From positions 32,001 to 96,000 of IMG/VR virus record IMGVR_UViG_3300037455_000448: a stretch of DNA of 64,000 bases; one strand, written 5' to 3'. Shown here in pieces: positions 7,752-40,052 of the stretch (position 1 is its first letter; every line of letters starts with the position of its first letter). The position numbers and the translations under genes were made by a program. The stretch comes from a virus (taxonomy: Duplodnaviria > Caudoviricetes). The notes under the pieces are model-generated. The model worked only from the letters and a program-made list of their open reading frames with translations, did no database searches and was not told the origin of the DNA.

Positions 7752-8042
7752 TTATTTATCTATAACCTTGTATTCAAGCGGTTTATAGAATTCGCTTATA
7801 GTATATCCGCTCCATATGACATCTACTATCTCATCGTCAAGTATAGTCTTGGTTCCGTTGTCGTACATGGTACAGATTACAATATCCCCTTCTTCCAGAT
7901 CTTCAGGCTCATAGAACTCCCACTCATTTCCGGTAGCGTCTACGCAAATTGCCTTATCTCCCATCAGGTCAATCCTTACGATTTCCATTGCCCTTGGATA
8001 TGTATTCTGTAACGTCAGCGCTATTAATAATCCTGATAACAT
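7752..8042 (-). CDS. small OB-fold-like secreted/membrane hypothetical protein
   Basis: Hydrophobic N-terminus; GNEWEF..D..GD....M.DNGT..I.DDEI. Confidence 0.6.
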   Translation of the reverse strand: MLSGLLIALTLQNTYPRAMEIVRIDLMGDKAICVDATGNEWEFYEPEDLEEGDIVICTMYDNGTKTILDDEIVDVIWSGYTISEFYKPLEYKVIDK

Positions 8043-8486: not shown

Positions 8487-8560
8487 ACACTATGCTGCGG
8501 AGTCGAACCGCAAGATCTAAGGACTTTCACCCACCCTTAGATACGTCCGTGTCATAGTGT
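8487..8560 (-). ncRNA. tRNA-like element A (acceptor-like stem, hairpin and canonical T-arm; no D-arm)
   Basis: Minus strand: ACACTATG/CATAGTGT closing stem, ATCTAAGG/CCTTAGAT hairpin, TGCGG-TTCGACT-CCGCA; 74 nt. Confidence 0.55.
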
Positions 8561-9555
8561 ATATTTTTAGGATTTACTGTCGGGCTTTGTACCGCTCATA
8601 CCTCGTACCGTTCACTAGAACTTACAGTGTTCTCATCGCCGAGAACTCATACACAGATGGCGTTACTCATCTAGTACTACTCGACTGTCCACCTCACTCC
8701 AGGACTTATTGTTACTACTCTACAGCTATATGCTACTCTTACCCAAGACTTATTCCTTCAACTACTGATTAAATCAATAGTGGCTTAGGTCATTATAACA
8801 TACAGCCCAGCATTAAGATGTTACCATCAAGGTGATTTACTCATTAGGTTATCTGAACCCTTGCCGACCTTTGTTACCCTCGTATCATCAGTATCCTAGT
8901 ACCTACTATGAACAGTTTGACGGTAGCTTGTGTCAATCAGCTACAACCTTATGCTACTAAATTATCTGCATAAGTATCAGAGGTTCGACTTCAACCTCTC
9001 GTATTTGTACCAAGAAAGAATTTTTATTATTCGTACTTCATTCGTACTCCTTCATGTCCTATCTTGAGGCAACCACTTTCTTCTCCTCTATCATCAGACG
9101 GATTACTTACTCTCTACGCAATCCTTGAGACCTCTACTCTTGGTTGGGCGGCGACCCACTTGTCAACTTCTAAGTACCCCTCTCCTATCATAGGGACAAC
9201 TTTTCGTAGTCTCTCCTACTTATGGCTGTCGCTATGTAGAAGGTGCTTCGTGCAACGCTATCTATTATCGCTACTTACTCTACGTCTATGCTCACTCTCC
9301 TTCCTCGCTTTCTATTGACCCTATACAGGAACTTTTAACAAGTCGGTGTATCTTGCCCCACCTATATGGATCGTTGCTTTTTCGTCACATCTCTTGACGC
9401 ATCTTTCACGCTTTATCCTCAGCTTTACACTGATACTCTTTAGCTTATCATGCCTTTATTTATTCTCTGGGATTCGATGAATCACAACGTTTCATCACGT
9501 CTTTCGGCTTAGACGTAACCTGATGTACGGTTTTCCCGATTACCGTAAACGCAAG
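8561..9555 (-). ncRNA. candidate large structured non-coding RNA
   Basis: ~1 kb with no credible gene and more than 12 short inverted repeats; lies in the leftward transcript between two tRNA-like elements. Confidence 0.5.
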
Positions 9556-9627
9556 GTCTATTGGGGTCTCGAACCCCACCGTGACTTCACTTTCTTTCGT
9601 GATATCACGTAGCCTTATCTTATAGAC
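9556..9627 (-). ncRNA. tRNA-like element B (same architecture as A)
   Basis: Minus strand: GTCTAT/ATAGAC closing stem, CGTGAT/GTCACG hairpin, TGGGG-TTCGAGA-CCCCA; 72 nt. Confidence 0.55.
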
Positions 9628-9655
9628 TCACTTTTTTTAAAAAAAGTAGAGAGCT

Positions 9656-10090
9656 TTACGCTCTCCACTCCTTCCAGATCTGCTCCCTCTCTGTAGCTGT
9701 TACTGTCTTGTTCGCTATGAACTCTTTCGCAACTTTGTCACTCTTGAATGTGATTGTCTTATTCTCTTTGCTATATACCCCGCCTTTTGCCTCAAATCGT
9801 CTCTTCAATACCTCCCATACGTCCTTGCCTACATAGCTGTCCAACTTTACTTCTTTCTTTGTGGCTGTCATCTCTACTACCACATCTTTTGCTTTTCCAC
9901 TGAAACTCTTACTCTTCTTACCACTACTTACCGCTACAGTCTTACTCTGCTTGCCGTTACGGCTTGATATTAACCCTTTGATGACGTCGTTTATTTTGAT
10001 TACTTCGTCATCGGTCAGCCGGTACTCAAGACCACCTAAAGAAACGATATTGTCTGCTACAAGTTTGTTGTTCTCTGTTAAGTTAATCAT
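9656..10090 (-). CDS. basic (Lys-rich) hypothetical protein, first gene of the leftward transcript
   Basis: 144 aa, AAGGAG RBS, promoter just upstream. Confidence 0.75.
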   Translation of the reverse strand: MINLTENNKLVADNIVSLGGLEYRLTDDEVIKINDVIKGLISSRNGKQSKTVAVSSGKKSKSFSGKAKDVVVEMTATKKEVKLDSYVGKDVWEVLKRRFEAKGGVYSKENKTITFKSDKVAKEFIANKTVTATEREQIWKEWRA

Positions 10091-10164: not shown

Positions 10165-10193
10165 AATATGAGACCTCAATCCGAAGTTGTCAA
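10165..10193 (-). promoter_or_regulatory. sigmaA-type promoter for the leftward operon
   Basis: TTGACA (10193-10188)-17 bp-CATATT (10170-10165). Confidence 0.55.
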
Positions 10194-10671: not shown

Positions 10672-11778
10672 ATGAAAGCTGGGGATGAGTTCAAGAATTA
10701 TAAAGAGCTGTGTAAAGAATTAAAAGAAGAGACAAGGAGTGGTCGTAGTAAAGAGTTGCAGCTAAAGAGGTGGCAGCTTTCATTTAAGTTTCATAAAGAG
10801 GGGAATAAGATAATAATTGATGAAGTAAATGATAAAGAGATAAGAGCGCCTGCTGGGGGGAATAGGAAGCATGTAAATATTTTTTTGCCATATGTAATAT
10901 GTTGCCTATATAGATCAGGGATAACTGATGAGTATATTGGAACGCAGAGACTGTTTAGGAGTGAGCTTCAACTGATACCATCAGAGATGTATGGAGTATT
11001 TAATAAACGAAGTAGGGATCATACAGATTATCTTAGAAAAAACAGTATATCACTGTATGAAAGCCTTACGATGTTTGTGCATTACTTTGAAGTCTATGCG
11101 AAAGAAACTGTTGAAGGCTGCTTTAATGTACTTGCAAAAGACGGGGGTATAAAGTGGAGTCCGGGGCAGATATTCATTGTAGGTATATCACATAAGAAAA
11201 AGGTATGCATTACCGGATATGCTGAAGTACTTGATAAGGTAGAAGAGGCTGTCTGTAAAGAGATGAATAAAGACAGGACGGATTTAAAAGGCCGACAATA
11301 TCTTCATGTGGTAAAGAGGGATAAAAAGCTGTCAAAGTTTTTCTATGCAGAGTGTATAAAGAGGCTTACTGCAGATAAAGAGCTGATGAAAGCGGTTAAG
11401 GCTGAGTATGAGAGACAATATGATATGGAGTTCATTCCTGATATGCTTGTTAATTATTTCAGGGTATATCACATTGAAAGCATAGACAGGAAAAAGCTTC
11501 GTAAATGGAAAGTAGCTCCGAGAGACAGCCTAAGAATGAAAAAAGCGTTTGTCAATTCTGTTGGGCCAGAGATGCAAACGCTCAAGGAAAATGTTTATAG
11601 AGACATATTCCGAAGGATGAGTAAAAAAAATAAATTTGGAATTCCGGACGGTGATTTTGAAAGTTTAAAATATTTAATTTCAAAAAACCGTAAGAAATTA
11701 ACTAATATGAATTATAGCCCAAAAGAATATGAATCGCAAGGAGATGACAGTGTTTCGGACATACCTGCAGAGAATTAG
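10672..11778 (+). CDS. basic hypothetical phage protein (putative DNA-binding)
   Basis: 368 aa; N-terminal FKNYKELCKEL.E....G.SK.LQLK.W...F.FHKEGNK motif. Confidence 0.7.
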   Translation: MKAGDEFKNYKELCKELKEETRSGRSKELQLKRWQLSFKFHKEGNKIIIDEVNDKEIRAPAGGNRKHVNIFLPYVICCLYRSGITDEYIGTQRLFRSELQLIPSEMYGVFNKRSRDHTDYLRKNSISLYESLTMFVHYFEVYAKETVEGCFNVLAKDGGIKWSPGQIFIVGISHKKKVCITGYAEVLDKVEEAVCKEMNKDRTDLKGRQYLHVVKRDKKLSKFFYAECIKRLTADKELMKAVKAEYERQYDMEFIPDMLVNYFRVYHIESIDRKKLRKWKVAPRDSLRMKKAFVNSVGPEMQTLKENVYRDIFRRMSKKNKFGIPDGDFESLKYLISKNRKKLTNMNYSPKEYESQGDDSVSDIPAEN

Positions 11779-12121: not shown

Positions 12122-14713
12122 ATGTCTAAGCATGGCTTAAAGATAAATAATTACGAGGCAGCCAGCCTTTATGAGTATGAGCATGGTTTAAGGAGCCGAC
12201 CTGATACCACCAAGGCAATGCTTGTTAATAGTCTTTTCTTAGATTATCTAATGGATAATGGTCTTATCCAGATATCAAAAAATGATTTTACAAGAGATAT
12301 TATATGCCTTCAGTTTACTTATGGTACCAAGGATTATGAGACTACTATGAGTAAACTGTCTGGCATGGATAATGTCACAGAGCTAAAGCAGAACATTGAG
12401 GCTAATAAGGAATACTGCGTAAAGATGTCTCGTGATGAACTCAGGGAGAAAGTTTATACCGAGGGAATCAGTATCACGTATAAGACATATAATAAACAAC
12501 ATGCTGAGATAAAGGATCTTGAGACAACCATCAGGTATAAGATGCTGTACCGCACTCCAGGCAAGGCCAAGAAAGGTACGTGTATGTTTGTCAATGAGCG
12601 TATCTATGACCAAGTGCATAACTTTCTGTATATGGGTATTGAGCTGCCAAAGGAGCATGCACCTATCGTAGAGATGGGAGCTTACTCTTCTCTCATCACC
12701 AGCTCAGTTGTTGACAGGATAAAGATTCTTCCTGAACAGATCTTGATTTTAAAAGATGTGGATTCATTTTTTAAAACAAAAGTTTTGTCTGTAGAAACAG
12801 ATGAAAAAAAACATTGCCAGATTGTTGAAAAAGAAAATTATGAAGTAGTTAATACACTGTTTGATGGTCAGGCGCTGATAGACTCTTCCATCTTCCCGGA
12901 GTGGGCAGATGGATATATACTGCTTCGTCATCATATGACTAAGGTTGCTGCATTTCATACAGACATTGAGTTGTTCATGAGAGAACACTATGGTGATCAG
13001 TATGACAGCGCATATATCACTGACATGTTTGGGCGTAGCATAAAGGTAAGTGAAATCAAACTAATCACTACTGATAATGCCATCAAGTGGAAGAAGTTTG
13101 GAGTGACGTTTGATTACTGGGCTTCATGGGTAAGAAAGAATGGATGTATGTTTGGGATTGTAAAGACATCTCATGAATCCAAGCTTGGTAATGTTCAGCG
13201 CATGAGTTATCAGATGATGAACTCCCTTGATATTGATTCAATGGAATCTGTCTGCCAGAAGTCCGTAGAATATGTTAATGCTTTAAAAAATGATAACGAA
13301 GAATTTTTAAAATATTTGGAAAAAAATCAGACTTTTTCAAATGATTTTGAGGTTTTACTGGCTTTAATTAAACATAATAAAAATTTTGTGAATAGTGAGT
13401 ACTTCAGGGAAAGAAAACAGAATATTATCAACGCATATATCCTTAACTTGAAGAATGGCCATAGTATACAAGATGCGGATAACCTGACGATAGTTGGCTC
13501 ACCATATGCTATGCTGCTCTACTCTGTTGGAGAAGATCCTTTCAGTGATCCAACGCTTAGGCCGGAGGAAAGAACTATCCAGTGCTACTCTGAGAGATTT
13601 GATGATGGTGAGTACATGGCTGCATTCAGATCACCTCATAACGCGAGGAATAATATTGTGTACCTACATAACTGCAGATATGAACTGATGAAGAAATTCT
13701 TTCATCTTGGTAACTACTGTATTGCTATCAATATGATACAGACAGACTTCCAGTGTAGAGCCAATGGAGCTGATATGGACTCTGATTCAGTATATACCAC
13801 TAATCAGAAGGATATAGTGGAGCATGCACGGTATTGTTATGAGCATTACCCTACTATTGTCAATAATATTCCGAAGGACTCAAATGTTTATAACTATGAC
13901 ATGAAGGACTTTGCCAAAGTTGATAATGGCTTGGCAGCATCTCAGCTGGCTATTGGTGAATCATCTAACCTTGCACAGATATGTCTGACATATACATATA
14001 ACTTCCCAGATAAGAAGTATCAGGACTATGTATGTATACTCAGTGTTCTGGCTCAGGTAGCTGTAGATTCTGCAAAGAGAGCCTTTGATATAAATCTTAC
14101 AGATGAGATCCGCAGGATAAAGAAGGACATGGACGTTGAGGAAAATGGTCTTCCTGATTTTTGGCTGTTGACCAAACGTGATAAGAGAAAGGTTCGCAAT
14201 GAAAAGGAAAGACGTGAGCGCGATCTGAAAAATAAAAAGCGTATCAGAAAGAATGTTAACAGCACTCTTCTGTGCCCTATGAATTATCTATATAACCTTG
14301 AGTTTGAAAGAGTTAAGTATGACACAGAAGCATTGCCTATGGAAGAATTCTGGATAGACCATAAGCACAATGTAGACCGTAGAAAATCAAAAGAGATTGA
14401 GAACCTTATAGAGAAATACTCACTTGATCTGTATAACTATAATGTCTCACATGGAAAAGAACCTAATGATTATCTTCTGCTTATTGATCAGTTTGACGAA
14501 CTGATTGCAGATATACGAAAGGTTTATATCTCTAAGAACTATCTGGGTATGATGTCATGGCTTATCAACAGGGCATTTGAGATTGGTGCTGGAGTACGAC
14601 GTAATAAAAAGGGAATGAATTCTTCCCTGAGTAAAAATAGAGCTTTGCTGCTTAAAGTACTATATGTTGTGTCTCCCGAAATCTTCCTGCAATGTTTTGT
14701 ACAGTTAATTTAA
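12122..14713 (+). CDS. YonO-like single-subunit (two-barrel) DNA-dependent RNA polymerase
   Basis: 863 aa; LFDGQALID, FRSPH, NGADMDSD (DxDxD metal-binding motif at ~13772-13786); position ahead of the late genes as in SPbeta. Confidence 0.8.
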   Translation: MSKHGLKINNYEAASLYEYEHGLRSRPDTTKAMLVNSLFLDYLMDNGLIQISKNDFTRDIICLQFTYGTKDYETTMSKLSGMDNVTELKQNIEANKEYCVKMSRDELREKVYTEGISITYKTYNKQHAEIKDLETTIRYKMLYRTPGKAKKGTCMFVNERIYDQVHNFLYMGIELPKEHAPIVEMGAYSSLITSSVVDRIKILPEQILILKDVDSFFKTKVLSVETDEKKHCQIVEKENYEVVNTLFDGQALIDSSIFPEWADGYILLRHHMTKVAAFHTDIELFMREHYGDQYDSAYITDMFGRSIKVSEIKLITTDNAIKWKKFGVTFDYWASWVRKNGCMFGIVKTSHESKLGNVQRMSYQMMNSLDIDSMESVCQKSVEYVNALKNDNEEFLKYLEKNQTFSNDFEVLLALIKHNKNFVNSEYFRERKQNIINAYILNLKNGHSIQDADNLTIVGSPYAMLLYSVGEDPFSDPTLRPEERTIQCYSERFDDGEYMAAFRSPHNARNNIVYLHNCRYELMKKFFHLGNYCIAINMIQTDFQCRANGADMDSDSVYTTNQKDIVEHARYCYEHYPTIVNNIPKDSNVYNYDMKDFAKVDNGLAASQLAIGESSNLAQICLTYTYNFPDKKYQDYVCILSVLAQVAVDSAKRAFDINLTDEIRRIKKDMDVEENGLPDFWLLTKRDKRKVRNEKERRERDLKNKKRIRKNVNSTLLCPMNYLYNLEFERVKYDTEALPMEEFWIDHKHNVDRRKSKEIENLIEKYSLDLYNYNVSHGKEPNDYLLLIDQFDELIADIRKVYISKNYLGMMSWLINRAFEIGAGVRRNKKGMNSSLSKNRALLLKVLYVVSPEIFLQCFVQLI

Positions 14714-38822: not shown

Positions 38823-40052
38823 ATGATTAATTTTGATCAGCTCGTAATTGATCGAGTTCTCGATGGTTGGTTTGAGGACAAAGATCTTAGAGTTCTTGCT
38901 GTTCTTGATCAGATTCAGAACTTCCAGGTATCTGTTTCTTCAACAACAAAGGATAAGACTGATGCTCAGGGAACTCTTATCAAGAGATTCTATACAGCTA
39001 AGCAGGCAGAGGTAACTGGTGAGAATGCAATCTTCTCTCTTGACCTCTCTGCAATTCAGGCTGGAACATCCAAGCTTACAGGATCAGACGTTACTCTTCC
39101 AAGAATCATTCAGGTTGCTAAGTCTGCTAATGCTCTTAAGCTCCCTGACACACCTATCGATGGTACTCTTATTGTTTATGGTACTCTTGACAATGGTGTT
39201 GTTGATACATCAAAACAGTATACTGCAGGTGCAGCAGCTGGTGAGAACACATATGCTGTTTCTACAGTAGAAGGTGTTACTACTATTGCTCTTCCTACAA
39301 ATGCAACAGACTACGTACAGATTAAGTATGAGTACAAGGTTGCTGAAGGAAAGTCTGCAGCAAGAGTTAACCACGACGGAACACACTTCCCTAAGGAAGT
39401 TAAGGCTACATTCAGAGTTCTTTGCTCAGATGTTTGTGATTCTGAGACAGTAAGAGCATTCTACATTGTATTCCCTAAGTTCCAGATCTCTCCTGACTTT
39501 GATATGACTTTCGATACAGAGTCAACACAGGGCTTCTCCGCAACAGCATTCAAGGATTACTGCGCTAAGGAGCAGATCCTGTTCTACATTGCTATTGCAG
39601 AGGATTCTGATAAGTATGATGCAGTTCAGCCAGCAGAGCTTGAAGAGGCTGAGCCAGCTATTGCAGGCGCAAAGACAGAGGCTGAGGATGGATCAGTTGT
39701 AATGTTTGGTACACCAGTATCTGACATGCAGGAAGATGTAGTAGTTGCTGATGGCGCTATTACTGGTACTCTTAAGTATCTTGACACTGGTGCTCTTGCT
39801 GAGCATTGGGGCGCAGGTAACTTCCTTGCTCTTAAGTTCTCTGATATCCCAGCAACAGCAACATCTGTACTCGTTGGTCTTGATCCTTCAGAGAGCAGCG
39901 GCCTTGTTGAGATCATCAATGATCCTGACAAAAATGGTGCATTCAAGATTACAAACAAGAATACTCAGGTATTCAAGGTTGTTACATCTGATGGCACAAG
40001 CACAAATACTCAGACATTCTCACTTTCCGGTCTTACAACACTGGATTCTTAA
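38823..40052 (+). CDS. major tail tube protein with C-terminal accessory domain
   Basis: High-expression codons, synteny, acidic linker then ~125-aa beta domain; terminator follows. Confidence 0.7.
   Translation: MINFDQLVIDRVLDGWFEDKDLRVLAVLDQIQNFQVSVSSTTKDKTDAQGTLIKRFYTAKQAEVTGENAIFSLDLSAIQAGTSKLTGSDVTLPRIIQVAKSANALKLPDTPIDGTLIVYGTLDNGVVDTSKQYTAGAAAGENTYAVSTVEGVTTIALPTNATDYVQIKYEYKVAEGKSAARVNHDGTHFPKEVKATFRVLCSDVCDSETVRAFYIVFPKFQISPDFDMTFDTESTQGFSATAFKDYCAKEQILFYIAIAEDSDKYDAVQPAELEEAEPAIAGAKTEAEDGSVVMFGTPVSDMQEDVVVADGAITGTLKYLDTGALAEHWGAGNFLALKFSDIPATATSVLVGLDPSESSGLVEIINDPDKNGAFKITNKNTQVFKVVTSDGTSTNTQTFSLSGLTTLDS

Follow-up and report, generated by a model that had tools for sequence, protein, structure and literature searches.

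The locus described here raises the question whether about 1.1 kb of phage DNA without a credible gene, framed by two tRNA-like elements on the same strand, encodes a large structured RNA, and whether these elements define its ends. It lies in a stretch of 64,000 nt (the window) taken from an IMG/VR virus record of 117 kb, whose completeness is estimated at 68%. To our knowledge, very few bacterial or phage RNAs longer than 500 nt feature a conserved architecture. A sequence-only reading of the window had proposed a large phage RNA at this place, possibly of a new class. The observation as a whole is confirmed by the analysis presented here and its interpretation is partly supported, the best-supported account being that of a large non-coding phage RNA which forms a new family and has its ends defined by minimal tRNA mimics.

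A non-coding locus between two tRNA-like elements

The genes of the window are arranged in a minus-strand group, which runs from about 10.1 kb down to position 1, and a long plus-strand block from 10.7 kb including terminase, portal and tail genes. Between a 144-aa ORF on the minus strand and small downstream ORFs, about 1.3 kb are devoid of a credible gene. The features of this region and its flanks are the following.

10165-10193, minus strand: predicted sigma-70-like promoter TTGACA-17-CATATT, 10 of 12 matches, upstream of the 144-aa ORF
9656-10090, minus strand: 144-aa ORF directly upstream of the RNA, without Pfam or PHROG match
9639-9666, minus strand: intrinsic-terminator-like hairpin GAGAGC/GCUCUC with a run of 7 U, read from the sequence, 11 nt before the first element
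9556-9627, minus strand: 5' tRNA-like element (TLS1) with 6-bp acceptor, linker, hairpin, 5-bp T stem and loop UUCGAGA
8561-9555, minus strand: RNA body of 995 nt, purine-rich, with near-invariant sequence blocks and no open frame
8487-8560, minus strand: 3' tRNA-like element (TLS2) with 8-bp acceptor, 11-nt linker, long hairpin, 5-bp T stem and loop UUCGACU
7752-8042, minus strand: 96-aa ORF with hydrophobic N-terminus, downstream of the RNA, without Pfam or PHROG match

That no credible gene lies between the elements had already been claimed, and the claim holds. Every minus-strand frame of the 995-nt body contains 33-41 stop codons of all three kinds, so that no stop-codon reassignment rescues a gene. 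Reassigning TAG, TGA or TAA on the minus strand of 8487-9627 opened no frame, and under any single stop recoding the longest frame of the body does not exceed 142 codons. The minus strand of 8487-9627 is a non-coding locus which is conserved in ten phage contigs.

The promoter, likewise claimed before, is present upstream of the 144-aa ORF, and the nucleotide alignment with the related contig L002 begins about there. Weakly similar counterparts of this ORF (17-28% identity across clades) are found upstream of the RNA in L002, L139, L004, L006, L012, and L020, and the counterpart in L005 is 34% identical by BLASTP. The terminator-like hairpin, which is absent from the earlier description, stands between the ORF served by this promoter and TLS1. 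It is also missing from the list produced by a scan for consensus promoters and terminators, and comparable hairpins followed by a U run occur 11-30 nt upstream of the 5' element in six of the first seven homologues. The interval between hairpin and 5' element has no room for a sigma-70 promoter. With a terminator upstream and no such promoter fitting, the RNA can be expressed only by read-through or from a promoter that escaped recognition. On the other side of the RNA, the 96-aa ORF is kept in all seven loci with enough flank, with 32-63% identity. Searches of a protein atlas and of protein families with the neighbouring ORFs found no function. Farther away, at 12122-14713 on the plus strand, an 863-aa protein is encoded; its homologues in public metagenomes number more than 3,400, and it has no Pfam domain.

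The two D-armless elements themselves were verified by folding, in their positions on the minus strand as well as in their architecture. TLS1, with the T arm UGGGG-UUCGAGA-CCCCA, adopts the described architecture as its minimum free energy (MFE) structure, with -26.6 kcal/mol (z = -5.35), which none of 200 shuffled sequences equalled. For TLS2, with the T arm UGCGG-UUCGACU-CCGCA, the described fold is the centroid structure, and its MFE has a z-score of -1.96. Both elements lack an anticodon loop in addition to the D arm. ARAGORN at default settings, a tRNA check which had been suggested before, reported no tRNA, neither for the window nor for the 117-kb record as a whole, and the Rfam tRNA model RF00005 gave no match at E ≤ 10 in the three family members scanned; the elements are not tRNAs. 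A strict descriptor (T stem paired at five of five positions, T-loop motif, abutting perfect acceptor of at least 6 bp) found three matches in the 117-kb genome compared to about 1.1 in shuffled genomes, two of them being TLS1 and TLS2. The third match (38980-39043, plus strand) is situated inside a 409-aa ORF, is unfolded (z = +0.72) and was judged to be due to chance. No credible element of this kind besides TLS1 and TLS2 exists in the record, and these two lie on the strand of the RNA and at the edges of the ORF-free region.

Conservation and structure of the RNA body

Homologues, whose collection had been proposed as a check, were found in nine other phage contigs, resulting in a family of ten distinct members: the window, L002, L005, L004, L006, L012, L020, L139, L133, and L080, with the L139 locus at the same place as in L089. 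Members were gathered by profile searches, one pattern scan of metagenomes and a covariance model, and the 863-aa neighbour protein served as a probe for related phage contigs. They are 785-1299 nt long, and pairwise identities among the first seven range from 43 to 92%, the three members added later being more distant. The scan of metagenome contigs contributed L012 and L020. Other neighbouring proteins used as probes of viral contigs found nothing, two sequence patterns scanned in viral contigs gave no new member, and a pattern scan of bacterial genomes returned chance matches only. A covariance model of the most conserved hairpin retrieved nothing further in 76 loci; among 50 related phage genomes it matched only the record of L133, and none of the 15 near-complete ones. 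Likewise, no DNA match to the RNA locus was found in GenBank phages and no copy of the RNA in GTDB representative genomes. The RNA family is rare.

Conservation follows the locus closely. The window and L002 are 70.7% identical over about 1.7 kb, covering the promoter, the 144-aa ORF and the whole RNA to the 3' element, and they share an identical block of 43 nt; nucleotide conservation ends sharply right after the 3' element. Throughout the family, near-invariant blocks alternate with variable arms, and insertions and deletions are not multiples of three. The 5' part of the RNA is more variable than the remainder, and members of clade B feature an additional 3' domain of about 250 nt.

The interior had been described as packed with hairpins, and the hairpins listed there recur in the MFE or the centroid fold. 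Comparison with shuffled controls is favorable for the minus strand (z = -2.37 for the whole region) but nearly as much so for the plus strand (-2.08). Since these z-scores are modest and similar on both strands, thermodynamics alone say little and give no choice of strand. More information was obtained from the following helices.

9137-9144, minus strand: 5' strand ACCAAGAG of a domain-closing helix, pairing with 9009-9017
9053-9097, minus strand: hairpin (F hairpin) with a 4-5-bp covarying stem and the conserved loop AGAAGAAAGUGGUUG, identified by covariation
9009-9017, minus strand: 3' strand UUUCUUGGU of the domain-closing helix, which spans about 130 nt and encloses two hairpins
8923-8944, minus strand: hairpin GUAGCU/AGCUAC with the nearly invariant loop GAUUGACACA and a covarying stem
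8724-8807, minus strand: 13-bp helix (8795-8807 with 8724-8736) with two nested helices inside, identified by covariation

The F hairpin combines an invariant AAGAAAGUGGU loop with seven different stem sequences in nine members. Its covariation score is 0.453 compared to 0.142 in shuffles (0 of 500 as high), and its covariance model scores 41.7-51.8 bits on members. The domain-closing helix reads CCAAGA/UCUUGG in the window, CCGAGA/UCUCGG in L002 and L005, CCACGG/CCGUGG in clade B and CUAGG/CCUAG in L139. The stem at 8923-8944, one of the hairpins noticed before, is conserved with covariation and occurs as GUAGCU/AGCUAC, GUAGUU/AGCUAC, GGC/GCC, and AGCG/CGCU. In the 13-bp helix, 6 of 13 pairs are changed on both sides across homologues, and its four G-U pairs would be A-C mismatches on the plus strand. 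Such G-U pairs, together with the T-loop motifs of the end elements, identify the minus strand as that of the RNA.

Apart from individual helices, compensatory changes were assessed by scoring the structure predicted for a single sequence in an approximately 70%-identical homologue, at pairs with both bases changed. Between the window and L002, 66-76% of the doubly changed pairs are canonical compared to 22-53% in slid controls. The structure of L004 scored in L006 gives 57-61% against 17-42%, and the reverse direction is weak (52%). Separated by span, pairs of less than 60 nt are canonical in 61% (control 34%) and those of 60-200 nt in 68% (control 35%), in contrast to 37% (control 44%), i.e., no covariation support, for pairs of more than 200 nt. 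The global test across clades was weak, which is attributed to poor alignment of the variable arms. Whole-molecule RNAalifold and naive helix scans across clades yielded noisy output as well, and the analysis accordingly relies on the tests from single sequence to homologue and on curated helices. Thus, the pairing pattern points to a body which is structured at least at the level of domains, with helices of up to about 200 nt, while a single compact 1-kb fold lacks support because long pairs do not covary and the global test is weak. Of the large phage RNA proposed by the sequence-only reading, the conserved non-coding locus and its covarying stems stand, but a single molecule of about 1 kb is not supported by pairs spanning more than 200 nt.

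The main rival explanation follows from this limit of span: the locus could encode a string of separate smaller structured RNAs, co-transcribed, with the tRNA mimics outermost. It stays compatible with the covariation because no long-range helix is supported, and whole domains have been gained or lost, e.g., the extra 3' domain of clade B or the F hairpin, which L080 lacks. Nevertheless, the body contains no minus-strand tRNA-like element and no promoter-like or terminator-like site which could separate such units, the order of all conserved blocks is identical in every member, and one covarying helix closes a domain of about 130 nt with several hairpins. A string of small RNAs is therefore considered unlikely, though it deserves more weight than any other alternative.

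The end elements across the family

Both end elements are present in nine of the ten members and the 3' element in all ten; L139 features the 3' element only, without a recognisable 5' element. That the two elements share an architecture without sharing sequence, as claimed for the window, was borne out across the family. The acceptor stems are perfectly complementary and unrelated in sequence among members, as illustrated by GUCUAU/AUAGAC, AGGUCUGA/UCAGAUCU, GCGUUGU/ACAACGC, ACACUAUG/CAUAGUGU, AUGCUCC/GGAGCAU, AGGCGAU/AUCGCCU, and GGCUACG/CGUAGCC. When 12 elements are aligned, pairing is complete in the 60 T-stem cells, 15 of which carry changes on both sides; this corresponds to a covariation score of 0.733 compared to 0.123 in shuffles (0 of 500 as high) and at most 0.20 with slid partners. 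Compensatory changes are also visible within a single element, as TLS2 of L002 shows UGCA/UGCA instead of UAUG/CAUA in the acceptor and U-A instead of C-G in the T stem. The invariant residues correspond to G53, T54, C56, A58, and C61 of tRNA (pattern GG-T-C-A-CC). Judged by these substitutions, the acceptor/T-arm structure is under strong selection.

The mimics keep the coaxial stack of acceptor and T arm (11-13 bp) and a canonical T loop. A 5-bp T stem, a T-psi-C-R-A-N-N loop and the G53-C61 pair were found in all 12 aligned elements, and two elements (UGCAA) have G instead of U at the second loop position. A cloverleaf with a D arm and a 7-nt anticodon loop on a 5-bp stem was not found in the elements, and their identification as tRNAs was rejected. 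The middle hairpins, with loops of about 3-13 nt and stems of about 4-10 bp, vary freely in length and loop size and thus hold no anticodon. The Rfam models of tRNA-Sec and of the Tymovirus tRNA-like structure match end to end at sub-threshold scores.

In view of this selection, the mimics might themselves be the functional products and the body incidental. As such they might be decoys or substrates for enzymes of host or phage which recognise the top half of tRNA, the candidates being CCA-adding enzyme, modification enzymes, tRNA-directed defence nucleases or tmRNA-like partners. Similar elements elsewhere in related phages, including a pair around a protein gene, would fit this idea. The same architecture is found in the tRNA-like domain of tmRNA, which consists of an acceptor, an unpaired linker, one helix and a T arm and is built from the two ends of one RNA. 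A tmRNA, which would also feature the alanine identity pair G3-U70 and a reading frame for the tag, was nevertheless rejected: ARAGORN -m finds none, each element closes on itself, and G3-U70 occurs, among the elements inspected, only in the 5' element of L002. Neither the acceptor stems nor the position after the stem are conserved in sequence, which makes a shared identity element unlikely, and the body is more conserved in sequence than the mimics. Altogether, it is quite improbable that the mimics are the products. Among anticodon-less relatives, RNA C and RNA D of phage T4 are free-standing tRNA-like RNAs usually located in tRNA clusters. Compared by description, T4 RNA C and RNA D and the tmRNA domain resemble the new elements in keeping acceptor and T arm while the D arm or anticodon loop is missing or replaced. 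They differ in that the T4 RNAs are free-standing small genes and the tmRNA domain joins two ends of one RNA, whereas the mimics bracket an RNA.

Known large RNAs and a possible route of maturation

A scan against Rfam had been recommended for this locus, with ROOL and GOLLD among the families to be considered. Self-assembly into nanocages has recently been demonstrated for both RNAs; we know of no function established for either. Rfam 15 gave no match to the RNA at gathering score or at E ≤ 10. In particular, ROOL (RF03087, gathering score 99.1 bits) was found neither at gathering score nor at E ≤ 10 in three members, nor anywhere in the window's own 117-kb genome, while the positive control in L090 scored 303 bits. 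GOLLD likewise gave no match in Rfam 15 scans of three members at E ≤ 10, the positive control being one for ROOL only. Group I and group II introns and RNase P RNA had no Rfam match at E ≤ 10, and group-II-D1D4-1 (RF01998) is absent from the window's genome. The positive control, a full-length ROOL at 10779-11394 (plus strand) of the related phage contig L090, is preceded by a TTGACA-17-TATAAT promoter and followed after 25 nt by tRNA-Gln. The new RNA shares no conserved motif with it, and no similarity was found by nhmmer or blastn. A relative with a genuine ROOL inside a tRNA array makes the new RNA look analogous but distinct, and the earlier suggestion of a possibly new class fits these results.

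The likeness is considerable. ROOL and GOLLD are phage or prophage RNAs located near or within tRNA islands, sometimes embedding tRNAs (PMC5737381, PMC12286853, PMC12990946), and the new RNA is likewise longer than 0.5 kb, conserved, multi-domain, phage-encoded and tied to tRNA-type elements. In contrast, it matches neither covariance model, shares no sequence motifs with them, measures 0.8-1.3 kb compared to the 574 positions of the ROOL model, and adjoins anticodon-less mimics instead of real tRNAs. A highly divergent ROOL or GOLLD missed by the Rfam models would account for the common ecology, for the ROOL in a relative and for the more variable 5' part, which has been described for GOLLD (PMC12286853). 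However, even relaxed filters gave no match in three members, the ROOL of L090 shows no resemblance and the new RNA is about twice as long as ROOL, so this explanation is very improbable. Weakest of all, a decayed protein gene or a DNA-level element, e.g., a replication origin, would agree with folding z-scores that are alike on both strands, but deserves hardly any credence in view of compensatory changes that keep pairing, G-U pairs valid only on the minus strand, strand-specific T-loop motifs, indels that are not multiples of three and no repeats or iterons noticed on reading the sequence and alignments.

Genuine tRNA arrays occur in relatives downstream of the 863-aa gene, whereas the new RNA is located on the other side of this gene and on the opposite strand. 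An abiF RNA motif (38.5 bits, just above gathering score) lies within the tRNA array of one relative (L068:11378-11414, plus strand). A near-canonical tRNA-like sequence which default ARAGORN leaves uncalled is situated in or near the arrays of a relative (L066:7964-8039, plus strand), with comparable ones at L080:9163-9232, L084:6239-6307, and L093:9051-9116; these may be odd tRNAs or further mimics. A group I intron match of 50.8 bits lies inside the match to the 863-aa gene in L115 (7736-7987, plus strand), and matches to the gene are 0.8-1.1 kb overlong in L100, L113, L119, and L133, which suggests intron-interrupted copies.

More distant relatives likewise carry similar tRNA-like elements in same-strand pairs. 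Two anticodon-less elements of 49 and 76 nt in L075 (1195-2069, minus strand) flank a 225-aa ORF with its own ribosome-binding site, so that such elements are not specific to the new RNA; here, the tRNA-like punctuation seems to enclose a protein gene and not an RNA. Minimal elements of acceptor and T arm were also noticed upstream of the 863-aa gene in L088 (871-918 and 3498-3554, minus strand), and one more in L095 (11327-11369, plus strand).

RNase P and RNase Z read the stack of acceptor and T arm and the T loop. These are exactly the features which the mimics keep, and the structural prerequisites of a substrate of both enzymes are present in the 11-13-bp stack and T loop, which makes cleavage at this locus plausible. 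The region 8487-9627 probably encodes a large, structured non-coding RNA of a small clade of about 120-180-kb phages, matured at tRNA mimics. Transcription would read through the terminator at 9666-9639, making the locus part of a longer early RNA. Each mimic would then be cut on its 5' side by host RNase P and trimmed on its 3' side by RNase Z or exonucleases, which would set free two small tRNA-like RNAs and a body of about 1 kb whose ends are defined. This scheme would parallel the processing of tRNA arrays, the cutting of MALAT1 at mascRNA and the t-elements of plant mitochondria. MALAT1/mascRNA and t-elements are cases of tRNA-like cutting signals for RNase P and RNase Z in non-tRNA transcripts (PMC8457004, PMC1920247), in which acceptor and T arm, non-decoding as here, stand exactly at the end of a long RNA. 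Whereas these systems are eukaryotic or organellar, the present one concerns a phage RNA with a mimic at both ends and a putative cleavage. More speculatively, a clade without tRNA genes in the available sequence would have retained two vestigial tRNA-like units to signal where to cut, and the body might act during infection like ROOL and GOLLD.

A farther-reaching proposal, which is tentative and held with less than even confidence, is that the RNA belongs to a third class of giant phage RNAs which has not been described before, is comparable to ROOL and GOLLD in complexity but unrelated to them, and is matured by a tRNA-like punctuation that this phage lineage also uses around protein genes, as in L075. 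If true, it would be the bacterial-virus counterpart of the mitochondrial tRNA-punctuation scheme. An unrelated RNA of about 1.1 kb in a phage lineage which also bears ROOL offers a natural comparison for a shared job, and its dedicated tRNA-like ends provide a testable handle on the maturation of large phage RNAs. Moreover, the same route of maturation may underlie the proximity of ROOL and GOLLD to tRNA arrays, and the pair around the protein gene of L075 suggests a wider use of tRNA-type punctuation by phages than has been recognised.
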